DNA of 63,930 bases, counting the filler, from Nitrospirae bacterium CG2_30_53_67 (GTDB lineage Bacteria > CG2-30-53-67): NCBI GenBank assembly GCA_001873285.1. It is 7 parts of 7 records of this genome, joined end to end, with 100 filler letters (N's around TTAATTAATTAA, not from the genome) between each part and the next. Parts side by side here need not be neighbours in the genome. Positions count along the whole stretch, not along the records: positions 6,648 to 32,307 come from MNYV01000086.1; 6 more parts are not named here. One strand, written 5' to 3'. The notes below the pieces were generated by a model. That model searched no databases. It was not told the origin of the DNA and saw only the letters and a list, made by a program, of their open reading frames with translations. Numbering within the stretch: the first letter of the stretch is position 1; each line of letters starts with the position of its first letter. Below, piece after piece: positions 24,306-38,247 of this stretch. Both the position numbers and the translations under genes were made by a program.

Positions 24306-25286
24306 ATGAAAATATTCCTTGTTGCAGTTCATTTCCATAGCTCCTTCGGCTGGTCCATTGAGCAGGCCCTCAAGCGATGCGGACATGAGGTGATCGTGTT
24401 CGATTACCGCAAGGACACGCGCCTGCGCGCTCCGCTTTTGAGCACCCTCTTTGTTCAGCGTATGAATCGCCTGTTGTCGGCTTTGGTGAAGGAGGTCAAG
24501 CCGGACTTGACCTTTGTGGCAAAGGGGGAACTGCTTTTTCCTGAAACGGCAAAGAGGATTCGAGAGGTGACCGGCGCTCCGTTGATCAATTGGTTTCCGG
24601 ATGCGCGGCCCATGGCCTTTGATAATGTCGCCCATGCGCTTTCTTGTTATGATTATTTCTTTACCAAGAACCCCTATTGGAACAAAAAACTTCGTGAAAT
24701 CGGTTATCAGAATATTCATTTCCTGGCGCACTCCTATGATCCGGAAATTCAGAAAAGGATGCCGCTGACGGAGCAGGAGAGACAAACCTTCGGATCGGAG
24801 GTCAGTTTTATAGGCACCATGTATCCGTACCGGCTAAAGGCCTTGGAGAGGGTTCAGGGGATGGATTTCAAAATATGGGGCCCAGGTTGGGAGAAGCTCC
24901 CTTGTGATCATCCTCTGCATGGCTCTTGCCAAAGATCCGGCATTATTCGCGGCATAGACCATAGCCGAGTGATCAATGCATCCCTGATCAACCTGAATCT
25001 TCACCACTATGATGACATTGATGGTCTGAACCAGCGGTTTTTTGATATCGCGGGGTGCGGCGGTTTTCAACTGGTTGACGATCGGGCCGAAATCGGGCGC
25101 TATCTGACCCCCGGCAAAGAGGTCGTCTGTTATCGAGACGTGGAAGAGCTTTGTGAAAAAATCCGATATTACCTTGAGCGCCCGGATGAGCGTGAGGCGA
25201 TTCGGGAGAACGGATTCAGGCGGATCCGGAAGGGGAATACGTATGATGACCGGATCAAGGAAATCTTCTCTGTGATTCGGACTTGA
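24306..25286 (+). CDS. CgeB-like glycosyltransferase
   Basis: NWFPD, SFIGT, INLNLH..NQRFFDIAGCGGFQL, YYLERPDERE. Confidence 0.85.
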   Translation: MKIFLVAVHFHSSFGWSIEQALKRCGHEVIVFDYRKDTRLRAPLLSTLFVQRMNRLLSALVKEVKPDLTFVAKGELLFPETAKRIREVTGAPLINWFPDARPMAFDNVAHALSCYDYFFTKNPYWNKKLREIGYQNIHFLAHSYDPEIQKRMPLTEQERQTFGSEVSFIGTMYPYRLKALERVQGMDFKIWGPGWEKLPCDHPLHGSCQRSGIIRGIDHSRVINASLINLNLHHYDDIDGLNQRFFDIAGCGGFQLVDDRAEIGRYLTPGKEVVCYRDVEELCEKIRYYLERPDEREAIRENGFRRIRKGNTYDDRIKEIFSVIRT

Positions 25287-26554
25287 GCGGATCCCGTGAC
25301 CCTGCCGTGTCTTTGGCCACAAACCGCCCTGCGCAGGGCCTCGAAAAGGGAAACAAGAAATGGCGCCGCTTCGACCGGGAGATTCAAATGGCCCGCCTAA
25401 GAGTGCTTTTCGTAACTGTGGATTATCCTCCACTTATAGGAGGCATGTCTGAGCATGCCTATGGGATCGTGAAGGGTCTTCGGGATCAGGGAGAGGAGGT
25501 CTTTGTGCTGGCTCCCCGCCCGGACGGCGCTTTGAGAGGAGATTCGATTCGCTCTGAAGAAAGGATTTATCGCTATCCTTTGTTGAATTCACCCATTTTG
25601 CGAATCCTCGTTCTCAGCTATTTCATTTTAATGCTTCTTCTCCGGCACAGGATTCGGGTGGTTCTGAACAATACCTGGTCTCCCTGCGGCATATCCACTT
25701 ATCTGGTTTCTCGTCTATTGCGAATCCATTACTTTATCCATGCACACGGACTGGATGTGCTTGAGCCCCGGAGAAGCGCGTTTTGGAGGAGTTGGATGAT
25801 ACGGGTGATGCGTCATTCCGATCGGATCTTGCCCGTGAGCCGGTTTACGGCTGAGAAGATACTCAGGCTGGGAATCCCCAAAGAAGCGGTGACGATCCTG
25901 AGCAACGGGATTGACCCCGCTCGGTGGCTCGAGTCAAAAAAATCTTCCGGCCTGCTGCAACGAGATTCTCTCCAAGGGAAGAGGATCATTTTGAGCGTCT
26001 CAAGACTGGTGAAGAGAAAGGGGCATGATCTGATTCTGCGGGCCGTGGAGAGGCTGTCCGGAGAATTTCCTGACCTGGTCTACCTGATCGTCGGGGATGG
26101 TCCGGAAAGGGAACGGCTTGAGTCCCTGGCAAAGGGGCTTCATTTAGACGGGCGGGTGATTTTTACGGGTTATGTGAAAAGTGAAGATCTCCCGGCCATC
26201 TATTCTGCCTGTGATCTATTTGTGCTGACGCCTGCCGAGATCCGGGATCAAGGGGATGTCGAAGGATTCGGGATCGTCTTTCTTGAGGCGGGCATCATGG
26301 GCAAGGCGGTCATCGGTTCCCGTTCCGGAGGCATTGAGGATGCCGTGGCGCACGAGCAGACAGGGCTTCTCATTCCGTCGGGAGATCAGGACGCTCTGGA
26401 ACAAGCGCTTCGAACCCTGTTGCATGAGAGGGCATACTGCAGTCAACTGGGGCAAAATGGAAAGGAGCGCGTTTTGAAGGATTATACATGGAGCCGGGTT
26501 GCCGCTCATCTCAGGACGATTATCTCTTGCCATGCCGGCCAAAGAGGTAAATAG
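25283..26554 (+). CDS. Glycosyltransferase family 4
   Basis: DYPPLIGG, SRLVKRKG, EGFGIVFLEA. Alternative start at ATG 25388. Confidence 0.9.
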   Translation: MSGSRDPAVSLATNRPAQGLEKGNKKWRRFDREIQMARLRVLFVTVDYPPLIGGMSEHAYGIVKGLRDQGEEVFVLAPRPDGALRGDSIRSEERIYRYPLLNSPILRILVLSYFILMLLLRHRIRVVLNNTWSPCGISTYLVSRLLRIHYFIHAHGLDVLEPRRSAFWRSWMIRVMRHSDRILPVSRFTAEKILRLGIPKEAVTILSNGIDPARWLESKKSSGLLQRDSLQGKRIILSVSRLVKRKGHDLILRAVERLSGEFPDLVYLIVGDGPERERLESLAKGLHLDGRVIFTGYVKSEDLPAIYSACDLFVLTPAEIRDQGDVEGFGIVFLEAGIMGKAVIGSRSGGIEDAVAHEQTGLLIPSGDQDALEQALRTLLHERAYCSQLGQNGKERVLKDYTWSRVAAHLRTIISCHAGQRGK

Positions 26555-26570
26555 GGATCGAGGGTTTTGC

Positions 26571-27683
26571 ATGCCGGGGAATGTCGTGAAGAAGAACGTC
26601 CTTTTCATAGAAAACACATCCGATCTGATCGGAGGCGGCCAACAGAGTCTTCTGAATCTGCTGCGCTTCCTCGACCGGGATCGATTTTCTCCGATGGTCG
26701 TATTCCCTTGTGACGGGCCGTTTGCGGAGAGGATTCTGACCTTGGGAATCCCTGTTTTCTTTAGTGATATGAACACCCTGAAAACGCTCAATGTTCTTCG
26801 TTTGGCACAAAGTGTTCGGAGTCTCATCCGTATCCTGCGCAGCCGGAAGATTGATCTTGTGCACACCAACGCATCCAGGACCACATGGTATGCAGGGCTG
26901 GCCTGCAGAATGGCGGGGGTATCGCTGGTTTGGCATGTCAGAATCGCGATGCGGGAGTCGTTCTATGATGCGCTGCTGTACCTTCTATCTGACAGGGTGA
27001 TAGCCATTTCCAATGCCGTGGCGCGCCGGTTCCCGTACCCGAACTCCCGGAAGAAGGTCTCCGTCATTTACAACGGCATTGATCCGGATGAATTCCACCT
27101 CGTAGATGCGTCGCCATTCCGGAGAAGATTTAAATTGGACGATAAATTCGTGATCGGCGTTGTCGGACAGATCCATCCCCTGAAAGGCCAGGTTTATGTC
27201 ATACGGGCGCTCAAACAATTATCAGCGTCATTTCCCCATCTTCACTGTCTGATCGTAGGATCTCCCACCGCTTACCAGAGAGAGTTGGAGCGCATGGTTA
27301 CAGACCTTGGATTGGAAACCTCTGTCACCTTTACAGGATGGCAGCAGGATGTTCGGGAGGTCATGTCGGCCCTGGACATTCTTGCGGTTCCTTCTCATAC
27401 CGAAGGCTTCGGGCGGGTCTTGATTGAGGCGATGGCGTGTGAGCGGCCGGTGGTGGCATTTGCCGTTGATGCCGTTCCGGAGATTATCGAATCGGGAGAG
27501 TCGGGATTGCTCGTGCCAAAGGGAGATTTGGCCGGTCTGGTTACGGCCATTCGAGCCTTGATTGAAAACAGGGATTTGAGGCAACGAATAGCAAGGAATG
27601 GAAAAGAGCGGGTGCGCCGGCTTTTCGACATTCGGGAGAATGTCAGGAGGACGCAGCAGGTTTATGATCTATGTAAAGTGTAA
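26571..27683 (+). CDS. Glycosyltransferase family 4
   Basis: IGGGQQSL, IYNGID, KGQ, EGFGRVLIEAMA. Confidence 0.9.
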   Translation: MPGNVVKKNVLFIENTSDLIGGGQQSLLNLLRFLDRDRFSPMVVFPCDGPFAERILTLGIPVFFSDMNTLKTLNVLRLAQSVRSLIRILRSRKIDLVHTNASRTTWYAGLACRMAGVSLVWHVRIAMRESFYDALLYLLSDRVIAISNAVARRFPYPNSRKKVSVIYNGIDPDEFHLVDASPFRRRFKLDDKFVIGVVGQIHPLKGQVYVIRALKQLSASFPHLHCLIVGSPTAYQRELERMVTDLGLETSVTFTGWQQDVREVMSALDILAVPSHTEGFGRVLIEAMACERPVVAFAVDAVPEIIESGESGLLVPKGDLAGLVTAIRALIENRDLRQRIARNGKERVRRLFDIRENVRRTQQVYDLCKV

Positions 27684-28509
27684 TCACTGCGGTCACGATG
27701 ATACAAGGCTGGTCCAGCAGGTTGACGATACCTATCGGGTCGTTCAGTGCCGTAGCTGTGGTTTGGTCTATACGAACCCCATCCCCGACCTTCACTCTCT
27801 TTGCGACCATTACGGTGAAAACTATTACCGTGATTGGATCGAGAAGCAATCGCGCGCCAGAGAAAGGATGTGGAGAAAAAGGATCAGGGAGGTGATGAGA
27901 CATAAACAGGGCGGCCGGTTACTGGACGTGGGCTGCGGTCTCGAAACGTTCTTGATGCTGGCGAAAGGGCAGGGATTTCAGGTCCAGGGCACGGAGGTAT
28001 CCTCTTTTATCACGTCTCAAGGGCGTGAAGACGAACCTCCGGATATATTTCGAGGGGAACTTCCGGAAGCTCAATTCCCGGATAAGCGCTTTGACGTCAT
28101 CACCCTGTGGCACAGTTTGGAGCACATGCCGGATCCAAAGAGGAACCTGATGGAAGTCCATCGCATCATGAAAGACGACGGGTTATTGGTGATTGCCGTG
28201 CCCAACCTGAAAAACTATTTTACGCGGTTTTTTTACCGCCTTTACAAGAGAAAAAAGTTCTCCCTGTTTGATCCCGGGGCCAAGGAACTTCACCTGTTTC
28301 ATTTTACGCCGATCAGCTTGCCCGCCATGCTGCATTCCGTCGGATTTTGCGTGGAGCAGTTGCGGCTGGATTTGTCCGCCGTGGTATTCCAGCGGAAAAT
28401 CATCGACTGGATCAGCGGACTCGTCTATGCCGCGACCCGCGCCAACTTTGCCGATGGATTTAAAATATTTGCAAGGAAGTCCGGTCACACCGCACAAAAA
28501 GCCCAATGA
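27664..28509 (+). CDS. Class I SAM-dependent methyltransferase with an N-terminal Zn ribbon
   Basis: CNHC..CRSCGL, LLDVGCG, FDVITLWHSLEH..VPN. Confidence 0.9.
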   Translation: MIYVKCNHCGHDDTRLVQQVDDTYRVVQCRSCGLVYTNPIPDLHSLCDHYGENYYRDWIEKQSRARERMWRKRIREVMRHKQGGRLLDVGCGLETFLMLAKGQGFQVQGTEVSSFITSQGREDEPPDIFRGELPEAQFPDKRFDVITLWHSLEHMPDPKRNLMEVHRIMKDDGLLVIAVPNLKNYFTRFFYRLYKRKKFSLFDPGAKELHLFHFTPISLPAMLHSVGFCVEQLRLDLSAVVFQRKIIDWISGLVYAATRANFADGFKIFARKSGHTAQKAQ

Positions 28510-28540
28510 AAAAAACCAGGATGGGCTTGTATGTGAAGGG

Positions 28541-29710
28541 ATGGCTTCGGGAATGAAATCACTGCTTAAAACTCGTCAGGTTCTGAAACGTCTCTTCGTG
28601 TTCATGAGAACGGTTTTTCTTCTAAGCGCGGGGCGTTTTGTTGTTCCCAGGAAAAGGAGCGGGATTCCGTCAAAACCCGTCAAGATCCTTGTGATCTCCC
28701 AGACGCGCCTGGGAGATGCTGTGCTGTCCGTTCCCCTCCTGACGGTTCTTCACGACCGATTCCCCTCAGCGCAGATTCATGTGCTTGCAAATCGGTATAT
28801 ACGGGAAGTCTATGAGATGTGCCCGCACACCACCGGGATCATGGAGTTGGAGAGCGTTTTCGGGCCCTTGGACTGGGCGCATGACATCAGACGAATCCGA
28901 AGGGAGAAGTTCGATTGGGTTATAGATCTGAATACGGACGGATCTTTGATGCCGGCGGTTGCGGCCGGGTACTCAGCCGCGCCATGCAGAATCGGTTATG
29001 GACAGGATGGACGGCGTATCTTCTTTGACGCCGCGCTCCCTTTTCCCAAGGAAGGGCGGCATATGGTGGATCTGATTCTGGGTACTCTGGCGCCCCTCGG
29101 ACTTTCCAGGGACCGGCCCGGTTTTGATCTGGTGATCCCTAAGGCGGAAGAGAGAGATACAGCCGCTATGCTGGAGCGGATCGGCGTGAAACGCGGCCGC
29201 CCGGTTGTCGGGATTCATCCCGGTGGAGTCCATCCAACCCAGCGCTGGCCTGCGGAGAATTTTGCTGATCTTTCCGACCTTATCCTCCGAAGCGGAGAAG
29301 CTCAGGTTCTCTTGCTTGGAGGGCCGAAGGATCAGATTCTGCTTTCGGAAATCGTCAACCGGATGCAAGGCGCGCCGATTCAATTCCCTCCCGTGACCCG
29401 TATCAAAGGTCTTGCAGCGCTCTTGAACAATCTGAATCTGTTGGTGTGTAATAATTCCGGCCCTCTTCATTTGGCCTCGGCTCTTTCTATCCCGACGATT
29501 TCATTTATGGGGCCCACGCGGGCCGAACAGTGGCGGCCTGTAGGAGAAGGGAATACAGTCCTCCGAAGGGATGACCTCGATTGTATCGGGTGTAATATGG
29601 GAATATGTCCGGTTAAAACGCATGCATGCATGTACGGAATCTCGCCGACAGAGGTATTTGAGACCATCCGGAATCGTCTGGCGCAAGACTCCAAGATCTT
29701 GTCTTCATAA
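28541..29710 (+). CDS. Glycosyltransferase family 9 (heptosyltransferase-like)
   Basis: KILVI..LGDAVLSVP, GIHPGG..RWP, NNSGPLHLASAL..GPT. Confidence 0.9.
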   Translation: MASGMKSLLKTRQVLKRLFVFMRTVFLLSAGRFVVPRKRSGIPSKPVKILVISQTRLGDAVLSVPLLTVLHDRFPSAQIHVLANRYIREVYEMCPHTTGIMELESVFGPLDWAHDIRRIRREKFDWVIDLNTDGSLMPAVAAGYSAAPCRIGYGQDGRRIFFDAALPFPKEGRHMVDLILGTLAPLGLSRDRPGFDLVIPKAEERDTAAMLERIGVKRGRPVVGIHPGGVHPTQRWPAENFADLSDLILRSGEAQVLLLGGPKDQILLSEIVNRMQGAPIQFPPVTRIKGLAALLNNLNLLVCNNSGPLHLASALSIPTISFMGPTRAEQWRPVGEGNTVLRRDDLDCIGCNMGICPVKTHACMYGISPTEVFETIRNRLAQDSKILSS

Positions 29711-29910
29711 TAGTGCCGGCTGAGGAAGTTCATTTCTTCGTATTCCTTGAAGGCGCGGATGCAGAAGGAAATGAACTCTCCTTTTTCCCGCTCGAAAAGA
29801 ACCCTGCCGTTCTGGGCGACCTCATACCGTAAGGCTGAGGAGACGCTGTTCAGACAGACGACGTCCAACCGGTCTACGACAAGCAGATGAATCTCCGGGC
29901 GGGATATCCC
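29711..29910 (-). pseudogene. Remnant of an MntA-like minimal nucleotidyltransferase (C-terminal half only)
   Basis: RLDVVCLNSVSSALRYEVAQNGRVLFERE..FKEYEEM resembles the MNT antitoxin C-terminus. No GSxxxG motif and no start of its own. Boundaries approximate. Confidence 0.55.
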
Positions 29911-29929
29911 GTAAAAACAAAGCTGGGGA

Positions 29930-30211
29930 TCAATCGGAGGAAAGCACCAGAAGTTTTTTCTCAACGAGGTCCCGGATCAGGTCCAGGGCCTGTTTCCGGA
30001 TAACGGCCGGGTCTCCCTCAAACTCCTGAGGAAGAAGAGAGAGGATTTCTCCCAACGGCACGTCTTCATTGCAGAGATCCCAGATCCGGGCGCCGGTCTC
30101 GTTCAAGAGGTAAGGTTCCCCGTTTTCTTCATCAAACAGGACGGTATTCCCGTCCTCTTCTCTCCAGAGCACGTTGGATGGGATGCTCGGTTTGCGATGG
30201 TCCGTTGTCAT
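29930..30211 (-). CDS. PqqD-family RiPP recognition element (stand-alone RRE)
   Basis: 93 aa: VLWREEDGNTVLFD..YLLNETGARIWDLC..LIRDLVEKKLL. Confidence 0.92.
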   Translation of the reverse strand: MTTDHRKPSIPSNVLWREEDGNTVLFDEENGEPYLLNETGARIWDLCNEDVPLGEILSLLPQEFEGDPAVIRKQALDLIRDLVEKKLLVLSSD

Positions 30212-30237
30212 ATATCACCCTTATATTGAGGGATGAA

Positions 30238-30417
30238 TTAACTGAATACTGTGTTCTTGGTGGACTGACTGCAAGAGACCGAGCCTGTCGGGATATTATT
30301 CTTGCCGCAGACGATTCCCCGTTCGAGGCCCGTGGTGCAGAAATAGTTTCCCACACCTTGAACCGAGATGGATGTGAGTTCGGGTTTTATCCATGGTTTT
30401 TTCGGTTTTGTTGCCAT
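30238..30417 (-). CDS. Putative RiPP precursor peptide, 59 aa (not in the ORF track)
   Basis: Manual translation: MATKPKKPWIKPELTSISVQGVGNYFCTTGLERGIVCGKNNIPTGSVSCSQSTKNTVFS*. The AAGGAG RBS overlaps the rSAM stop. Carries a WxxPxL leader motif and sits between the rSAM and PqqD genes. Confidence 0.85.
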   Translation of the reverse strand: MATKPKKPWIKPELTSISVQGVGNYFCTTGLERGIVCGKNNIPTGSVSCSQSTKNTVFS

Positions 30418-30429
30418 ATTTTATACTCC

Positions 30430-31437
30430 TTACTTTGTTTGAGAAAGCCTTACACAGGGGGCATATTCCCCCCAGACATCGTCGGTGCGGAGATAGGCCT
30501 CGGCCCTGCAGCCGCCTTTACATTCATGCAGGGATTCACAGCCGCGGCACCGGCCGTGAAGGTTTTCCACCTGCAGGAACTGGGCATAAAGCGGGATCTG
30601 CTCCCAGGCCCCCTGTATCCCGTATTCCAGGACATTGTTTGAGAGCCCCCAGACGTGGGCCGGGGTGCAGGGGGTCATGTTCCCGTCCGGCATGATCAGG
30701 CAGGTGGAGGCGGTTTCGCTCCCCACGGTGCAGGTGCTGGGCCTTCCGATCTCATTAAAGAAGAGGGTATGGTTCCTGAAAGAAACCTTCACGCCCATCT
30801 CATTCAATGACCGGATACTGTCCATGGCCTCACGAAGTTCTTTTTCAAGGGGCCGTAAGGATTCGTAATTCAAAAAGCCGCGGCCTGTCGGTGTCATCTC
30901 GGAGGCATTGATCAGGGAGGGTTCGAAGGGGAGAAGCTTATGGACCAGCCGGGAGAGGTCATGGATATTCTCCCGGGTGATGGTCACCTTGATATGCAGG
31001 TCAAGACCCGCATCGTGGATCCAGCCGAGGGCCTTGATGATCCGATCAAAGGCATGCCCACCCATGATGGCGTCGTTGATCTCCGGTCTGGAGCCGTGCA
31101 GGCTCACCTGAATCCGGTTCAGACCATAGTCTTTAAGGCCCTGAACCGTTGCCGGGTCCAGTAAAATTCCGTTGGTGGTCAGGACCGTGAAGATTCCGTT
31201 CTCGCGGAGACGTCCGACATAATCCAATGTTTCGGGGATCAGGAGGGGCTCCCCGCCGGTGAGGTAGACCTTCAGGACCCGGCATTGGATCAGGTCTTCG
31301 AGAATGAGGGCCCGTTTTTCGGCATCCAGTTCATGGTCTCGGATCTCGAGATCCGATTCGCTGAGGCAGAAATTGCACGCCATGTTGCACCGGTCCGTGA
31401 GACACCAGAAGACTTCAACGGGGGTTTTTAAGAGCAT
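30430..31437 (-). CDS. Radical SAM/SPASM peptide maturase (PqqE/MftC/AlbA-like)
   Basis: CNMACNFC, TGGEP, TNG. SPASM cysteines CTVG..C..PDG..PC and CRGC....CKGGCRA....C. Confidence 0.92.
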   Translation of the reverse strand: MLLKTPVEVFWCLTDRCNMACNFCLSESDLEIRDHELDAEKRALILEDLIQCRVLKVYLTGGEPLLIPETLDYVGRLRENGIFTVLTTNGILLDPATVQGLKDYGLNRIQVSLHGSRPEINDAIMGGHAFDRIIKALGWIHDAGLDLHIKVTITRENIHDLSRLVHKLLPFEPSLINASEMTPTGRGFLNYESLRPLEKELREAMDSIRSLNEMGVKVSFRNHTLFFNEIGRPSTCTVGSETASTCLIMPDGNMTPCTPAHVWGLSNNVLEYGIQGAWEQIPLYAQFLQVENLHGRCRGCESLHECKGGCRAEAYLRTDDVWGEYAPCVRLSQTK

Positions 31438-31440
31438 GGG

Positions 31441-32307
31441 TCAGCCTGTCTTTAAAATGTCCAAAATGATGCCGGGCAAAACGGGAAAATCCCTTATAAT
31501 ATTATATTTTAACCGGGTTATGGCTATGCTGTCAATGATCGATTTTGAGACGTCAAAAGCGGCCCGGTTATGGCGGATCAGGTCTTCCCGGGCCGTATCC
31601 GGAGACTCCTGAATCTTGGCTGCTTCCAGGGAGGCGAGCAGGGAGAAAAAGGCCTCAGCCTTATCCATTTTATCAGCATAAATGGATAAGTGGTTGATAT
31701 TGTTGTCTAAAAATATCACTTTTTTTAATGGGGCACTTTCCGGAAACGGTTCTCTAAGGTCGATCCGGAAAACTTCTTCATCCATGCTTTGCACCAAGGT
31801 CTTTTCATGGGCCATCAGGCCGAGTTCCGGATGGAGATTCATCACGTCCCGGGTGATCCGGATCCTGCGGGGGTAGGGAAGGATCTGGAACGACCCGTTG
31901 CTTTCCATACGGATGAAGCTGTCCTCTTCGGAGAGATAGCTGAATCCGTATTTCGTCAGGAGGCAGGAAAGGGAGGTCTTGCCTGAGTTGGTCTTGCCGA
32001 GGAGAAGGAGACCCCTCCCATCCTTGTAAAGGGATGCCCCGTGAAACACTGCCAGGTCTCCCATAAGAGAGAGTTCCAAGTGGACCAGGAAGCCGGTGAC
32101 CCCGAAGAGGATGACCGCAACCGCATCCGCCGGGCACGAGCCGCTGATATAGAGATGGACGGTCCGGTTAGGGATGTTCAGCACGGAGACGGTATCTTTG
32201 CGGATCCAGTGGATTTCGTCTCCGGGATCTCTCCGAAGCGTCTTGAGCGGTGTTTTGTCCTCATCGAGGTCTTGTTTTTGTGTCAGGGAGAGACGGATCC
32301 GGGGAGA
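31441..32307 (-). CDS. HprK-related kinase (5' end lost in gap)
   Basis: FHGASL..GLLLLGKTNSGKTSL (P-loop)..YLSEE..PYPR. The frame stays open upstream of 32184 up to the gap. Confidence 0.8.
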   Translation of the reverse strand, partial: SPRIRLSLTQKQDLDEDKTPLKTLRRDPGDEIHWIRKDTVSVLNIPNRTVHLYISGSCPADAVAVILFGVTGFLVHLELSLMGDLAVFHGASLYKDGRGLLLLGKTNSGKTSLSCLLTKYGFSYLSEEDSFIRMESNGSFQILPYPRRIRITRDVMNLHPELGLMAHEKTLVQSMDEEVFRIDLREPFPESAPLKKVIFLDNNINHLSIYADKMDKAEAFFSLLASLEAAKIQESPDTAREDLIRHNRAAFDVSKSIIDSIAITRLKYNIIRDFPVLPGIILDILKTG

Positions 32308-32407
32308 NNNNNNNNNNNNNNNNNNNNNNNNNNNNNNNNNNNNNNNNNNNNTTAATTAATTAANNNNNNNNNNNNNNNNNNNNNNNNNNNNNNNNNNNNN
32401 NNNNNNN

Positions 32408-33585
32408 CCCATCACCTCATGATCGGTATGACAATCAATGCAGTCAAGCTTATATTCACAGCGGGTGAAAAGGGTCATGGGGACATAGTAGTCCTGCAGA
32501 CGCAGGGCCTCGCCTGAGAGACCGGCCGTCTCATCGAGGTCGGTCCTTTTGTCAAACTGCATGGTGAAGAGGGAATGAACCCCCCGGTTATGGCAATGAT
32601 TGCACTGCGAATAGGGGATTTTCAGGGTCAGGCGGTGAAACGACCCGTGGCCGGGCTCGTCCCGCCGGATCGTGGGATCGCCGCCCCGGTAATAGGCTTC
32701 CTTGTCATACAGATAGTGACAGGAAGAGCAGCCCGATGCCCTAAAAAGGTAGGGTTGATCCACGCCCCGGCTCCAAAGATGGCATTGATCCGCGCAATGC
32801 TGATGGAGTTCTGTGTCCACACGATGTCCCGAAAAGGTATACTCGGCTCCCGTGGGATCCGTACGGATCATCTTTCCCTCTGAATCCGCCGGCAGATCGG
32901 ACGCTCGGGTATAAGGCAAGGGCCGCAAAGCGGATACGGTTTTCTCCCTGTCCACAGGCTCTTTCCCCCGGATGCCGGCAACTCCATACAAGGGGCGAAG
33001 GCTTTTCTGAGCGCCGAAGCTGTAGCGGGGATTGGCAATCTCGCCTGCCTTGGTGGCCATGATCGTGGTCTTGACCCGCTGGATGTGATTTCTCTCCTCC
33101 AGAGGATCGCCCTGGTGGCAGGCCGTGCCGTCCGGCATGGTCCTGCCGCAGCCCTGGTCCGCCACACGAAAATCCGAAGGGTTTCCCCCGCCGATCAGCC
33201 CATCATGGGCCGCAGGGAGGGATACGGAAAGCGGATCGCCGCCATGACAGATGCTGCATCCGAAGGTCTCCACGGGATGGGAGTCGCTGATCGGCTCGAT
33301 GCCGATATGGCACGAGGTGCACCTTTCTTTTTTCCCGTCTTTCAGAACCACCTCCTGAAGGCCGGGAAGGTCCCGCTTAAGGGCCAGACGCAGGTCGAGG
33401 ATCTTATCCCTTTCCTCACCTGAAAGGCCGCCCGCCTCGAGGGCTTGAAGCTCATGCAACCTTCGGTTCTTATAGATCTCCTGATAGATCTTGTACGGTT
33501 TGTTCCCTTCCTGGACCATGGCCCAAAGGATCGTAAGCAGAACAAGGACCACGAGGATGAGCAGGGTTTCAGGGTACCGGTTCAT
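32408..33585 (-). CDS. Membrane-anchored multiheme cytochrome c (3' end lost in gap)
   Basis: N-terminal TM. Five CxxCH motifs (CTSCH, CSICH, CSSCH, CNHCH, CIDCH) plus CADQCH and CX9CH. Confidence 0.9.
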
Positions 33586-33589
33586 GAAC

Positions 33590-33994
33590 TCACCTGAAAA
33601 GATTGAAAAACGTCATGACGGCAATCAAGAGCAAAACCAACGACAGCAGCGCAAGGGGGATCAGCCTCCGCTTGAGCGGCGCCGGCCCTTCCTCGGCCTC
33701 CCCAGCCTGAAAGAACGGAAGCGCCATCAGCAGGAGGAATGCCGCCAGCGGAATCAGGACCCCGGCCGCGAGCGGAGGGAGATGGCGGAGGAGTTCCTGC
33801 ACCCAGGCGAAAATCCATGGGGCGCTTACATGGGGAGGCGTGGCCGTCGGGTCGGCCATCCCGCCCAGGGGCGCGGGCATGAACAGGGCGAGGGCCATCA
33901 GGGCCGCCGAAGCGGCCAGCATGGATAGAACCTCCATCCTGACCAGGATGTCCCTGGAGACGTATTGAGGTTCCTGCTCTTTCTTTTGTTCCAT
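33590..33994 (-). CDS. Cytochrome b C-terminal subunit (subunit IV/PetD- or ExtQ-like)
   Basis: APLGGMADPTATP..SAPWIF..QELL (PEWY variant), three TM segments. Confidence 0.85.
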   Translation of the reverse strand: MEQKKEQEPQYVSRDILVRMEVLSMLAASAALMALALFMPAPLGGMADPTATPPHVSAPWIFAWVQELLRHLPPLAAGVLIPLAAFLLLMALPFFQAGEAEEGPAPLKRRLIPLALLSLVLLLIAVMTFFNLFR

Positions 33995-34051
33995 TTCCTT
34001 CTTCCTAACCCGGCATAGCCGGAACCAAACAGGATTCGAGGGTTCAAGGGG

Positions 34052-34720
34052 TCACAGCGGTCTTCCCGTCCATCCCAGTTTGCTGACCTTCCAAAAATGA
34101 TAGATCATAAAACAGACGACCGTGATGGGAAGCACCACGCAGTGCCAGAGATAGATCCGCTGTATGGAGCCCTGCCCATAGATGGAAGTCCCGGTCAGGA
34201 CCCGGTGCAGCGCCTCGCCCGCATAGGGGATCTCCTTGAGGACTCCCAGCGCCACAAACCCCGCCCAGAAGGTCTCCCTGTCATCACGGAGAAGGTATCC
34301 GCTGAAATCCATGATGAGCGCCAGGGCCATCATGGTCATTCCCACAACCCAGATCCACTGCTTGGCCCCCTGGTAGGAACCGGTCAGGGCCACACGGATC
34401 ATATGGAACAGGATCAGGATGACCATCCCCTGTCCGCCCCAGTAATGAAGATTCCGGATCAGGCCCCCGTAGGGGACAAATTCCGTGATCTCCCGAACCG
34501 AAAGGTATGGAGAGGCATCTCCGGGACGGTAATAGAACATCAACAAAATACCGGTGACCAGGAGAACAAGAAAAAAATAAAAGGCGAGGCCCCCCAGACA
34601 GAACGTGAAAGTGAGCCGGATGCGCTCTCTGGGAATCAGAGGGGGATGGAGATGAAAAAGAAAGGCGGCCATGCCGCTGTGATCTTTTTTCCTTGGCTTA
34701 AAAATCTCGCAGACCTCCAT
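34052..34720 (-). CDS. Cytochrome b6-like subunit (PetB- or ExtP-like)
   Basis: FCLGGL, TGILLMFYY, RNLHYW..FHMIRV, WHCVVLP..YHFW (four His ligands). Confidence 0.92.
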   Translation of the reverse strand: MEVCEIFKPRKKDHSGMAAFLFHLHPPLIPRERIRLTFTFCLGGLAFYFFLVLLVTGILLMFYYRPGDASPYLSVREITEFVPYGGLIRNLHYWGGQGMVILILFHMIRVALTGSYQGAKQWIWVVGMTMMALALIMDFSGYLLRDDRETFWAGFVALGVLKEIPYAGEALHRVLTGTSIYGQGSIQRIYLWHCVVLPITVVCFMIYHFWKVSKLGWTGRPL

Positions 34721-34804
34721 CTCTCAGGAAGGGCGGAGCTTTATTGACGGACTTGAGACGACCCTTCCGGTACGGTGTGCTTGATGCCGGATGACGGATC
34801 CCTT

Positions 34805-35380
34805 TTAGATTCGAAAATCTTCAGGAACCGGTTTCAGGATGTCGGCAATTATTTCATTCTTCTGATTTTTTGTCAAGAGAACGTGTTGGAGCGGCTTTCT
34901 GGCGGGCCCGGAGACAAAACGTCCGGAAAGTTCAAAACGACTTCCGTGGCAGGGACATTCGAAGAGTCTGATCGCTTCGTTCCAGCGGAAACTACAGCCC
35001 AGATGGGGGCAGTCCCCCTTCAGTGCAAAGAGTCCATTTTCATCACGGACCAGATAGACCCCCTGGATCTTGGCCACCCCGCCCATGGGAAAATCTTCAG
35101 AACGCCCCACGGAAAACCGACTGGGCGCATCTTCCTTCCGGCCCATGGAGAGAAAGGCCTGAACCATCCTGGAAATACCGAGAAAGGAGAGGAGGGAAAA
35201 TGAGAGGGTTCCCCATTTGAGGAACCCTCTCCTGCTGAGATGGGTCCCCCGCTCTACAGGAAATGCATGATTGAAGGAATTCTGAGGGGTGATTCTTTCA
35301 ATGCTTTGCAGTAGGCATTCCTGATGTGCGGGATTCCCTCCGGGCAGCTTTGAATTCTGGTTTCGGGAACCTTGGGTCAT
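34805..35380 (-). CDS. Rieske iron-sulfur protein
   Basis: Tat-like SRRGFLK, CPHLGC and CPCHGSRF boxes, GPA..PL. Exact start uncertain. Confidence 0.92.
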   Translation of the reverse strand: MTQGSRNQNSKLPGGNPAHQECLLQSIERITPQNSFNHAFPVERGTHLSRRGFLKWGTLSFSLLSFLGISRMVQAFLSMGRKEDAPSRFSVGRSEDFPMGGVAKIQGVYLVRDENGLFALKGDCPHLGCSFRWNEAIRLFECPCHGSRFELSGRFVSGPARKPLQHVLLTKNQKNEIIADILKPVPEDFRI

Positions 35381-35448
35381 AAAAAACTCCGGGACTCTTG
35401 CTCCCCTCTATGAGCCATGGGCTATCCATGACCTGATACCATCGGCCC

Positions 35449-36003
35449 TTAGATGTAATAGATGGCCGGTCCGGTCCCCTTCTCTTTTAGTTTCACATGG
35501 TGTTTGTGCTTGGCCAGGAGCTTGGAAACTTCGCTCTTGGGATCATGGATATCCCCGGCCTGCCTGGCGCCGGTCATGCAGGTATGAACGCAGGCCGTGT
35601 CCAGACCGGCCTTGAGCCGGTGCTCACAGAAGGAGCACTTGTCCACCTTGCCTTTTTTCTCGTCGTAGTATCGGGCATGGTATGGACACGCAGCCATGCA
35701 CGCCTTGCAGCCGATGCAACGATCCGGGTTGATGGCAATGATCCCGTTCTCCTCTTGGTAGGTGGCCTCGGTGGGGCAGGCCGCAACACACGGCGGATTC
35801 TCACAGTGCATGCAGTTCCCCGGTTCAAAATCCATTTTGAGATCCGGGAATTTCCCGTTGGGCCCGTGCTCATAGACCCAGGCTCGGCTGTGCCCGACGG
35901 GGACGCCGTTTTCGGCCTTGCAGCCCACCATGCAGGCATTGCAGTCAATGCACTTCGAAAGATCAATGACAAAGGCATAACGTTTATTTTTATTCTCGCT
36001 CAT
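35449..36003 (-). CDS. Four-cluster Fe-S subunit (PsrB/NrfC/DmsB-like)
   Basis: CIDCNACMVGC, CMHCENPPCVAACP, CIGCKACMAACPY, KCSFC..ACVHTC. Confidence 0.93.
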   Translation of the reverse strand: MSENKNKRYAFVIDLSKCIDCNACMVGCKAENGVPVGHSRAWVYEHGPNGKFPDLKMDFEPGNCMHCENPPCVAACPTEATYQEENGIIAINPDRCIGCKACMAACPYHARYYDEKKGKVDKCSFCEHRLKAGLDTACVHTCMTGARQAGDIHDPKSEVSKLLAKHKHHVKLKEKGTGPAIYYI

Positions 36004-36018
36004 AATAGACATCCCTTT

Positions 36019-38247
36019 CTACACAGCAGCCTTGGATACGGTGACCATGGTTTGAGAAAGCGCCTGGGACCCGCTGACACGATCGCTGATACTCTCATGC
36101 ACGTCGGAGTCGAGCGCCCCTTTGCCGTAAGCGGTGGACAGCCCTTTAGCCTTGTGACCAAAACCGAAATTCATCCAGACGCAGTCCGGACGGATCCCTT
36201 CTGTAACTTTTGCCTTGAGTGTCACCTTCCCGACCTTGCTCTCTACGGTGACCATGTCCCCGTCTTTGATCCCCCGGGACGATGCCGACGCCGTATGGAT
36301 CCAGAGATGATTTTCGGGGACGAATTCGGCCAGCCACTGGTTGTTCTGCGTGGAGGACTGGGTATGGTGGGCCACCTTGCCTGAAAGGAGATAAAACTGA
36401 TTCGCCTCGGGTTTGGGCAGGTCCTTCCACTTCGGGACCGCATCAAACCCGACCTGGCTGAGAGGAGCGGAAACAATTTCTATCTTCCCGCTGGGCGTCT
36501 GGAAGACATCCTTCTCAGGCTTCTTGCCCTCCTCATGCCGGGCAGGAACCTCGTAATATCCCTTCTTCTTCAGATCGTCCAACGTGACCTTGAACGGCTT
36601 CAACTGGGCATTGAGATACTCGTCTTCGTTTTTGTAATTGAAGAACTCATTCAGACCGACCCGGTCCCCCAGCAGTTTGAAGATCTCGAGTCCGGACTTG
36701 GTGTCGTAGAGCGGCGGCACCACCGGCTGCCTCAGGAAGACCTTGCTGCCGGCCACGCTCAAGGGATCGTACCGTTCCAGATAACTACTTTCCGGAAGGA
36801 TCACGTCCGAGTAGAAGGCCGTGTCATTGGGGATGATGTCAATGGTGACGATCAGGTCCAGATTCTTGATGGCCTCCAGGGTCTTGGCCCGGTCGCAGAG
36901 CGACATCATGGGGTTCTGCCGGTAGATCAGCCACCCCTTGGCCTGATAGGGCTTGCCCCGAAGAATAGCGTCCCGCAGTTCCTGGAACACACCCAGGTTG
37001 AGCGGAACCAGGGGATACCTCATGGGAACCGCATCGAGGCGCATGGCAGAGATCCTGGGATAAGGAGGCTGCGGAATGACGCCAAGCTCCATGCCTCCCT
37101 CTCCTCCTGCGGGCATCAGCCCGCCCGGCTGTTTCCAGTTTCCCACCAGGGCATTCAGGATCGCGATGGCCCGTTCGGCCTGGAAGGAATTCAGCGTATT
37201 GGAAGTCCTCCAGTTGGGATGGGCGAATGCCGCCGGAGCCGCCTTGGCAAAACCCCTGGCCACCTGCACAATCTTCTTGGCCGAGATATCGCATTCCTTT
37301 TCGGCCCACTCAGGCGTATACTCCTTTATCCCCTTTTCCAGTTCGTCAAAACCCTGGGTATATTCATCAACGAATTTCTTATTGTAGAGTTTTTCCTTGA
37401 TGATGACATGGTTCAACGCCAGGAAGAAGGCGAGATCCCCGCCCGGCCGGACCGGCAGCCATTCCGATGCCTTGGCGGCGGACTTGCTGTACCTCGGGTC
37501 GAGCACGACCACGTGGGCGCCTCTCTCCACGGCCGCCATAAAATCCTGCGTCTCGGAGTTGGCGATCCCTTCCAGGAGGTTCCGGCCGTTGTAAATGATG
37601 TACTTGGTATTCGGGTAATCCCCGCCTACGGCCTCGGTCCCGTAGGTCATGGTGAACCCCATAACCATGGCATTGAAACAGAGGCTCCTCTGGGTCCCGT
37701 AATTGGGCGTCCCATAGGCCTGCAGGAGATTCTCAAACTGCAATTGCGCCAGATTGTGGGTGGAACTCATGACCATGGCCTCAGCGCCATGCTGCTCCTT
37801 GATCTTCTTCATGCCTTCGGCCACATAGTCCAAGGCCTCATCCCATGAGACTTGTTTGAATTGACCGGACCCTCTTTCCCCTACTCGCATGAGCGGGCTC
37901 TTGAGCCGGTCCGGATCGTAAAGGGTCATGATCCCGGCATTCCCTTTGGGGCAGAGCCTGCCTCGGGAGTTGGGATGCTCCGGATTGCCTTCCAACTTGT
38001 AGGCCACCCCGTCCCGCACCTTGGCGATCAGGCCGCACCGCCAGACACACATCTCGCAGATGGACGGGATCTCAACATTCTTCCCGCCGGACGTATCGGC
38101 GCCCTCTTCGGCCATGGCCAAAGACCGGAATCCCGTGAGGTTCGACACCATCACGCCGGCCGCGATCGTCCCGGCACTGGCCCCGAGAAAACGACGGCGA
38201 GTCACCCCCTTTTGAAAAGTCTCATTCTCATACCTTCTTGACTTCAT
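36019..38247 (-). CDS. Tat-exported Mo-bisPGD oxidoreductase, polysulfide/thiosulfate reductase (PsrA/PhsA)-like
   Basis: TRRRFL Tat motif, SICEMCVWRC..LCPKG FS0 motif, probable Cys ligand in QRSLCF, ILPESSYLER, HTQSST. Confidence 0.88.
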   Translation of the reverse strand: MKSRRYENETFQKGVTRRRFLGASAGTIAAGVMVSNLTGFRSLAMAEEGADTSGGKNVEIPSICEMCVWRCGLIAKVRDGVAYKLEGNPEHPNSRGRLCPKGNAGIMTLYDPDRLKSPLMRVGERGSGQFKQVSWDEALDYVAEGMKKIKEQHGAEAMVMSSTHNLAQLQFENLLQAYGTPNYGTQRSLCFNAMVMGFTMTYGTEAVGGDYPNTKYIIYNGRNLLEGIANSETQDFMAAVERGAHVVVLDPRYSKSAAKASEWLPVRPGGDLAFFLALNHVIIKEKLYNKKFVDEYTQGFDELEKGIKEYTPEWAEKECDISAKKIVQVARGFAKAAPAAFAHPNWRTSNTLNSFQAERAIAILNALVGNWKQPGGLMPAGGEGGMELGVIPQPPYPRISAMRLDAVPMRYPLVPLNLGVFQELRDAILRGKPYQAKGWLIYRQNPMMSLCDRAKTLEAIKNLDLIVTIDIIPNDTAFYSDVILPESSYLERYDPLSVAGSKVFLRQPVVPPLYDTKSGLEIFKLLGDRVGLNEFFNYKNEDEYLNAQLKPFKVTLDDLKKKGYYEVPARHEEGKKPEKDVFQTPSGKIEIVSAPLSQVGFDAVPKWKDLPKPEANQFYLLSGKVAHHTQSSTQNNQWLAEFVPENHLWIHTASASSRGIKDGDMVTVESKVGKVTLKAKVTEGIRPDCVWMNFGFGHKAKGLSTAYGKGALDSDVHESISDRVSGSQALSQTMVTVSKAAV

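Follow-up and report, generated by a model that had tools for sequence, protein, structure and literature searches.

A conserved, rare RiPP-type gene cluster of Nitrospirota that combines lasso-type leader machinery and an HprK-fold kinase with a radical SAM/SPASM enzyme

Organisation of the operon

The DNA analysed here (the window) is a chain of separate contigs, 63,930 nucleotides long with filler included, from the genome of Nitrospirae bacterium CG2_30_53_67 (NCBI GenBank assembly GCA_001873285.1; G000 below, 2.37 Mb, 95% complete), and its positions 6648-32307 represent contig C15. Four tightly packed genes occupy the minus strand of 29930-32307, with gaps of 26, 12 and 3 nt from the PqqD gene to the kinase end. 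They encode a discrete PqqD-family RRE (recognition element of RiPPs, peptides that are made by the ribosome and then modified post-translationally), a 59-aa peptide, a radical S-adenosylmethionine (SAM)/SPASM enzyme and a P-loop kinase (Table 1). Together they form a conserved, rare RiPP-type cluster that combines known modules. The same four genes had been proposed in the initial annotation of the window, and both the open reading frames (ORFs) and their coordinates were borne out. The kinase is cut: its frame runs back without a stop to 32307, the contig end, and therefore the window carries only part of the gene.

Table 1. Genes and signals of the operon in the window
Feature	Position	Strand	Remarks
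Kinase, PEPCK/HprK-fold P-loop	31441..32307	minus	5'-truncated at contig end, 288/331 codons
Radical SAM/SPASM enzyme, 335 aa, without fused RRE	30430..31437	minus	PF04055; invariant Cys sets
Shine-Dalgarno AAGGAG of precursor gene	30426..30431	minus	Sequence reading; overlaps radical SAM stop codon 30430-32; 8 nt before ATG
Precursor, 59 aa, ATG start, WxxPxL leader, Cys27/37/49, C-terminal Phe-Ser	30238..30417	minus	Conserved beside radical SAM gene
Discrete PqqD-family RRE, lasso-B1-like, 93 aa	29930..30211	minus	PF05402

Genes further upstream had been thought to be hidden by a gap. The stretch in question (32308-32417) consists of runs of N around the stop-codon linker TTAATTAATTAA and is a contig joint, not a gap inside a gene; since the window is a chain of separate contigs, the genes on either side of it are not genomic neighbours. 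The true upstream region can be read from metagenome contigs of the same strain (L045, L046 and L047). L045 is 100% identical to the window stretch, while L046, with 99.985% identity to 25433-32307 (6875 nt), extends 4.1 kb beyond it. The gene order on L046 begins with a molybdopterin oxidoreductase; after some 375 nt of spacer come a PF14907 nucleotidyltransferase (362 aa; L046:2891-3979; E = 2.5e-52) directly upstream of the kinase, the full kinase (331 aa; L046:4002-4997), radical SAM enzyme, precursor and PqqD. A sigma-70-like site, recognised only by its 11/12 consensus match, lies 24 nt before the nucleotidyltransferase start. This order indicates an operon of five genes without a cyclase, peptidase or transporter directly upstream; a peptidase and an ABC-2 transporter, which the annotation had proposed to look for beyond 32307, turned up in the clusters of relatives instead. 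No terminator-like site was seen after the PqqD gene, and a promoter-like 9/12 match inside the 3' end of the radical SAM gene, ending at the precursor ATG, was dismissed.

The precursor peptide family

A motif scan of both strands of ten loci returned exactly one ORF in each, adjoining the radical SAM gene and provided with an ATG and a Shine-Dalgarno-like site, and the same single precursor-type ORF stands beside the radical SAM gene in L045-L048. Conservation of the short ORF extends to every related locus in which its position can be seen (L049 is uninformative because it is cut before that position), in agreement with the first reading of the ORF as a precursor gene whose AAGGAG overlaps the radical SAM stop codon. 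A profile of 13 peptides (alignment A2), searched against 1.84 billion representative sequences, gave 14 matches at E <= 0.001, comprising 13 peptide clusters with lengths of 51-69 aa and a single false positive, the repeat protein P0012 (494 aa). On genomes, the profile matched 8/8 of the family and 0/5 of the sister family, a count that is circular except for G005, where a new weak match lies just upstream of the B2-like gene described below. The peptide has no match to the curated families of Pfam and NCBIfam.

Features were counted over 25 distinct peptides, which are related sequences and not independent samples. The leader motif W..P.[LIVM] is present in 25/25, as is its narrower form WxxPx(L/I), and the Trp is found at position 8-9 in 22 of the 25 (Trp 9 in the window peptide). 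Three Cys are carried by 23/25, with a Cys1-Cys2 spacing of 9-11, a Cys2-Cys3 spacing of 11-18 and 8-13 residues after Cys3. The last residue is Ser in 24/25 and Thr in the remaining one, and the penultimate residue is Phe in 20/25. Hence the survey of radical SAM homologues for short ORFs, as the annotation had proposed, recovered the lasso-type leader motif, the Cys spacing and the terminal Ser that had been picked out in the window peptide alone. In the same alignment an aromatic residue stands near Cys1 in many cores. Lasso precursors are marked by a Thr at the penultimate leader position and by Asp/Glu at core position 7-9; in the alignment no Thr is conserved before Cys1. Within the genus the peptide keeps 51% identity, compared with 86% for the radical SAM enzyme and 90% for PqqD, and a fast-diverging core beside conserved enzymes is the usual pattern of RiPP cores. 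With these sequences at hand, we consider that this is very probably a real RiPP cluster with the 59-aa peptide as its precursor.

Two members of the set, P0014 and the peptide of L035:8009-8227, have a 17-residue N-terminal extension with a basic, twin-arginine-like start and only two Cys.

Distribution and arrangement of the cluster

Radical SAM homologues (E <= 1e-40) were found in 7/8 other genomes of the same family and in 0/32 genomes outside it, and the hosts in the family are metagenome-assembled genomes (MAGs) labelled Nitrospirae or Nitrospirota. In tblastn maps, kinase, PqqD and radical SAM genes occur together in all nine distinct loci with the upstream side visible (drawn from L046 with L045 and L047, and from L017, L018, L019, L020, L021, L033, L035, L048 and L049). 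Among the further metagenome loci, L048 holds the full core and L049 is cut. Two loci outside the family show the same association: a Candidatus Schekmanbacteria MAG (L033) has kinase, PqqD, radical SAM enzyme, precursor, B2-like protein and nucleotidyltransferase, and an unclassified bacterium (L035) has a divergent nucleotidyltransferase, kinase, PqqD, radical SAM enzyme and precursor, followed by GT4 and Wzx genes.

The fullest cluster is that of G006, in which a divergent GspN gene is followed by genes for a CPBP protease, nucleotidyltransferase, kinase, radical SAM enzyme, precursor, PqqD and B2-like protein; the convergent side carries ABC-2 permease and ATPase genes together with genes for an HD_5 protein and for an AAA_22 ATPase (all by Pfam). 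The order in G003 and G007 is CPBP, kinase, PqqD, radical SAM enzyme, precursor and B2-like protein. In G000 the CPBP and B2-like genes are adjacent on contig C117 (L026:2453-4988), beside a divergent GspN-like gene, and the five-gene core adjoins glycosyltransferase genes; G001 and G002 are split likewise. The module of kinase, radical SAM enzyme, precursor and PqqD lies between CPBP and B2-like genes in G003, G006 and G007, and because the C117 pair flanks the module in these genomes, the core seems to have been relocated in the genus of the window and in G002.

The B2-like gene is part of the cluster in G003, G004, G006, G007, G008 and L033, and lies elsewhere in G000 (L026:4314-4988 on contig C117), G001 and G002. 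Residues Cys153, His185 and Asp200 of its product are invariant. Matches to Transglut_core/core3 of Pfam and to lasso_biosyn_B2 are weak and below cut-off, and a profile search of PDB sequences gave no match; the predicted model (pLDDT 69.1) resembles the fold of the transglutaminase-like Cys proteases LapG (E = 1.8e-4), CPR-C4 and 3isr. The CPBP protein of L020 contains a myxosortase-core domain (113 bits against a cut-off of 100), and CPBP proteins are best taken as accessory or as neighbours since L033 and L035 lack them. The cluster is also accompanied, in Nitrospirota MAGs as well as in the Schekmanbacteria MAG, by genes for an HD_5 protein and for an AAA_22 ATPase (L022:3969-6004, L033:2051-3947, L018 and L020); in the Schekmanbacteria locus their genes stand on the same strand directly before the kinase, and the two proteins may be regulators or a part of the system. 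Moreover, a Wzx-type flippase gene and a GT4 gene lie directly beside the cluster in L019:4084-7622 and L035:8276-11008.

Other radical SAM loci returned by scans of the collection were set aside as generic SPASM enzymes with 24-29% identity, three of them (L036, L037 and L040) without a kinase; L038, L039, L041-L044 and L050-L058 were left out of gene mapping. One of the rejected loci, L037:1021-3234 of a Candidatus Aenigmatarchaeota, has a PqqD homologue and two tandem radical SAM/SPASM genes, with no kinase in its 3.5 kb, and resembles a two-radical-SAM cassette.

The enzymes and the recognition element

The radical SAM enzyme matches PF04055 (E = 1.1e-27), and its SPASM region is seen by Pfam at only E = 0.014. 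Nevertheless, the CxxxCxxC motif (C17, C21, C24) and all eight Cys of the SPASM region (C236, C246, C257, C297, C300, C306, C310, C328) are invariant in six homologues of 41-86% identity, and this motif with a Cys set for two auxiliary clusters places the protein in the radical SAM/SPASM subfamily, as first annotated. The NCBIfam ranking is led by PqqE (145.8 bits; cut-off 381.35), MftC (128.5; cut-off 265) and AhbD, and lower scores come from GeoRSP_rSAM (106.2; cut-off 400), StsB (67.8; 625) and PapB (62.2; 340), all of them below cut-off. The nearest solved structure is PqqE (6c8v, E = 2.5e-36), followed by SkfB, SuiB and CteB; its lead over SkfB and CteB is large.

For the kinase, the best hidden Markov model (HMM) matches are HprK_rel_A (26.8 bits; cut-off 200), HprK_rel_B and ScmC (14.6-21; cut-off 125), and a sequence search of the PDB gave no match. 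The Walker A residues Gly152-Lys153-Thr154 are invariant in six orthologues (numbering of alignment A3), which also keep a His-Ala pair, an acidic stretch and a Pro-Arg motif. The AlphaFold model (pLDDT 87.6) resembles PEP carboxykinases (E = 1.7e-9) and, at rank 43, HPr kinase/phosphatase 1ko7 (E = 2.4e-7), and some of the clusters neighbouring the protein in a language-model space carry Hpr_kinase_C or ScmC. On account of the invariant Walker A motif, these fold matches and the language-model neighbours we assign it as a P-loop kinase of the HprK/PEPCK fold, which upholds the HprK-like label given to it before.

The PqqD protein belongs to PF05402 (E = 3.4e-15); lasso_PqqD_Bac matches it at E = 2.9e-9, below cut-off, and geo_PqqD reaches 25.6 bits against 100. 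When its profile is compared with solved proteins, TbiB1 (5v1u, E = 2.1e-12) comes closest, followed by a lasso PqqD chaperone (9x90_B, E = 7.5e-10), whereas PqqD itself reaches E = 1.6e-5, and the stand-alone PqqD of the annotation can accordingly be specified as a lasso-B1-like RRE. Modelling of the RRE-leader complex, another of its suggestions, gave co-folds of RRE and precursor with ipSAE values of 0.53, 0.53 and 0.52 (best of three controls 0.00), contacts that agree by at least 80% between runs, and a partner pLDDT of at least 49. The mark applied is reached by 116/157 solved complexes and 2/215 mismatched pairs; at ipSAE <= 0.60 it is reached by only 18 of those 157 complexes and by both mismatched pairs. 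Moreover, the pass may reflect likeness alone, because RRE-leader complexes have already been solved. The co-fold thus weakly supports a predicted binding of the leader.

Expression

Contigs from four metatranscriptome libraries of aquifer samples cover the precursor ORF in 4/4 cases, and 30200-30473, which contains this ORF, is the only part of the operon with contigs in all four. Such coverage fits the high precursor expression that is usual for RiPP operons, though contigs cannot prove it. RNA-library contigs are missing from some stretches of the operon, and 29400-29884 is spanned by none; contigs cannot demonstrate absence.

Comparison with known systems

Much of the leader machinery is that of lasso peptides. 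The cluster has a B1-type RRE with the (Y/W)xxPx(L/V/I) leader motif and a B2 transglutaminase-fold Cys protease, but it lacks the third lasso component, an Asn-synthetase-like macrolactam cyclase. No lasso cyclase lies in the complete loci L046, L017, L018, L020 and L021, and the Asn-synthase homologues (PF00733) of five genomes are all on contigs other than the cluster contigs, which confirms the earlier impression from the window.

The closest resemblance is to lasso clusters of the paeninodin/pseudomycoidin type, with which the cluster shares a B1-type RRE, a transglutaminase-fold B2-type peptidase, an HprK-family kinase, a PF14907-type nucleotidyltransferase, an ABC exporter and, on the precursor side, a WxxP leader and a terminal Ser. 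At the level of genes, the HprK-family kinase and a precursor ending in Ser correspond to paeninodin-type tailoring. Unlike those clusters, it has a radical SAM/SPASM enzyme instead of the lasso cyclase and three conserved core Cys, and it is hosted by groundwater MAGs labelled Nitrospirota or Schekmanbacteria, whereas paeninodin-type clusters are from Bacillota. In the pseudomycoidin pathway, PsmK places a phosphate on the C-terminal Ser, and a hexose on that phosphate requires the nucleotidyltransferase PsmN (PMC6993621). Popov et al. 2026 (PMC13381572) describe WxxP as near-invariant in paeninodin-type leaders and the clusters of linear polyphosphorylated peptides (LPPs) as having an RRE, an HprK kinase and an NTP (nucleoside triphosphate) transferase without a cyclase, often in polysaccharide loci; LPPs and paeninodins are said there to be restricted to Bacillota, and radical SAM enzymes are not mentioned. 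The RRE-Finder paper reports discrete lasso-type RREs beside radical SAM enzymes.

Like LPP clusters, ours unites an RRE, an HprK-like kinase and an NTP transferase, has no cyclase and is placed in polysaccharide loci (GT4, GT9 and Wzx here). It differs from them in its leader, which has Trp and departs downstream from the LPP pattern YxxPxVLxHQxIxFETxxS. A signal peptidase I of the archaeal type, which is an LPP trait, was not seen among the ORFs of the loci scanned with Pfam, although no dedicated genome search was made.

Several other systems share single modules. An HprK-related protein, a PqqD chaperone and a PqqE-like radical SAM/SPASM enzyme are common to our cluster and to SynChlorMet (ScmC/D/E/F), GeoRSP and the HprK-related kinase A/B systems, but the scores of our kinase, PqqD and radical SAM proteins are all far below the NCBIfam cut-offs. 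SynChlorMet/GeoRSP-type cassettes have two radical SAM enzymes, and the cluster here has one. With sactipeptides and ranthipeptides it shares a radical SAM/SPASM enzyme and an RRE acting on a Cys-bearing core; in contrast to them, the RRE is discrete, the scores lie below the PapB and StsB cut-offs, a repeated CxxxD/E-type motif is lacking, and the cluster also includes a kinase and a nucleotidyltransferase along with a B2-type peptidase. The nearest relatives of the radical SAM enzyme are found in the PqqE/PqqD and MftC/MftB pairs, which also consist of a small SPASM enzyme and a separate PqqD-fold partner. Here too the scores lie below the cut-offs, the other genes of the PQQ and mycofactocin pathways are absent among the locus ORFs scanned, and the precursor has neither the length nor the conserved ends of PQQ and mycofactocin precursors.

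None of the four proteins reaches the cut-off of any curated family, and full-text searches of the open-access literature found no description of this cluster type and, among the papers listed, no combination of HprK-type and radical SAM terms. The earlier opinion that the combination belongs to no characterised class stands to this extent; the general combination of parts had been noticed before, since NCBIfam holds the in-silico systems SynChlorMet, GeoRSP and HprK-related A and B.

A proposed pathway and its alternatives

The best reading of the cluster is a paeninodin-type lasso toolkit in which a radical SAM/SPASM enzyme takes the place of the lasso cyclase. From the gene content, conservation, precursor family, invariant features and folds described above we infer the chemical steps of a pathway, because the parts equal this toolkit minus the cyclase plus the SPASM enzyme, and because PsmK/PsmN and the LPPs provide precedents. 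The discrete lasso-B1-type PqqD would bind the leader at WxxPx(L/I)xx(L/I/M) and present the peptide to the enzymes. Cross-linking within the core would then fall to the PqqE-like radical SAM/SPASM enzyme, with thioethers from the three evenly spaced Cys as the likeliest links, and the HprK-fold kinase would phosphorylate the conserved C-terminal Ser. The PF14907 nucleotidyltransferase may decorate the Ser phosphate, as in pseudomycoidin; the transglutaminase-fold, lasso-B2-like Cys protease, encoded within the cluster by relatives and on contig C117 by G000, would cleave the leader; and the ABC-2 transporter would export the product. Binding of the leader by the RRE is likely. Phosphorylation of the terminal Ser, argued by analogy, appears reasonably plausible, and the whole pathway of an RRE-guided, radical-SAM-cross-linked and kinase-phosphorylated peptide is marginally favoured. 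The formation of Cys thioethers is a more tentative proposal, just short of evenly balanced.

Several observations pull the other way. In sequence, the closest counterparts of the radical SAM enzyme are the C-C bond formers PqqE and MftC rather than the sactipeptide or ranthipeptide maturases, and the HMM support for the kinase is weak, with scores far below the cut-offs. The peptides are not independent, P0001-P0003 being 78-93% identical to that of the window, and 2/25 carry only two Cys. The B2-like peptidase lies outside the operon in the window's genome. The nucleotidyltransferase of this operon is seen only on the near-identical metagenome contig, and that of L017, used as query, had no match in the G000 assembly (95% complete). 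The RNA evidence consists of contigs only, in which carry-over of DNA is possible and genes are not rankable. Finally, LppK phosphorylates Ser3 of the LPP core and not the terminal Ser (PMC13381572), so the phosphorylation site here could be another Ser or Thr.

The same RiPP pathway could also run with a different radical SAM chemistry, i.e. a C-C, C-N or C-O link, an epimerisation or a modification of the Phe-Ser end, with the Cys serving as disulfides, metal ligands or recognition elements. The best HMM and structure matches, to the C-C bond formers PqqE and MftC, point in this direction; MftC acts on the C-terminus of its precursor, and the Phe-Ser end of our peptides (Phe in 20/25, Ser or Thr in 25/25) is as conserved as the Cys, while many cores offer an aromatic residue near Cys1. 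On the other hand, three Cys at fixed spacing are the most regular feature of a fast-changing core, their odd number suits individual thioethers better than disulfides, and the chemistry of SPASM enzymes is poorly predicted by how alike their sequences are. We regard a non-thioether chemistry of this kind as unlikely.

That the peptide is a precursor of a redox cofactor like PQQ or mycofactocin, made for a nearby oxidoreductase and not for export, seems very improbable. The family matches of the radical SAM enzyme to PqqE and MftC, its discrete PqqD partner and the molybdopterin oxidoreductase just upstream in the window's genus would agree with it, but the scores are below the cut-offs (145.8 vs 381 for PqqE, 128.5 vs 265 for MftC) and the RRE resembles lasso B1 proteins more than PqqD. 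Moreover, the core is hypervariable between close relatives, and the oxidoreductase neighbour is not conserved, other loci encoding instead a B2-like peptidase and a CPBP protease along with an ABC-2 exporter. That the short ORF is open by chance, and that the enzymes have another substrate, is scarcely credible: at 59 aa, under the ORF cut-off and with no curated family match it is easily doubted, but its ATG and Shine-Dalgarno site recur at the same place in loci whose radical SAM enzymes are only 39-48% identical, 13 peptide clusters of its kind turned up among 1.84 billion representatives, and its motifs are invariant.

The repeated placement of the cluster beside GT4, GT9 and Wzx genes echoes the reports on LPPs and paeninodins. 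A more far-reaching proposal would be a separate RiPP class in which the lasso B1/B2 pair and the kinase/nucleotidyltransferase pair are re-used with a radical SAM/SPASM cyclase, the product being a multi-thioether macrocycle with a C-terminal O-phospho(glycosyl)serine, functionally tied to the synthesis of cell-envelope polysaccharides in several lineages, as this placement suggests; for the present this is doubtful.

If the toolkit reading is true, the lasso-type B1/B2 leader machinery and the rare kinase/nucleotidyltransferase pair would be portable modules that can be coupled to a different cyclising enzyme, and both would extend far beyond Bacillota. Radical-SAM cross-linked peptides would gain phosphorylation, which is rare among RiPP modifications. 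The compact five-gene operon with its clear precursor suits heterologous work and is a sound lead for genome mining.

Neighbouring genes

The operon converges on a row of plus-strand genes of polysaccharide/LPS (lipopolysaccharide) type at 25283-29710, comprising two GT4 genes, a methyltransferase and a GT9 heptosyltransferase. An ORF at 29467-29964 on the minus strand overlaps both the stop codon of the PqqD gene and the 3' end of the heptosyltransferase gene. Its residues 30-79 resemble the MntA antitoxin nucleotidyltransferase over the C-terminal half of the latter (E = 1.1e-8, a match below cut-off). The ORF may be what is left of a gene in the 219 nt that separate the convergent genes.

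Beyond the contig joint, on a different contig, the minus strand of 32356-38247 carries a row of respiratory-type ORFs, identified by eye from the ORF list. They encode a protein of 409 aa in which several CxxCH motifs occur, a cytochrome-b-like protein of 222 aa, a Rieske-like protein of 191 aa, a poly-Cys, ferredoxin-like protein of 187 aa and a molybdopterin-oxidoreductase-like protein of 742 aa with a twin-arginine start.

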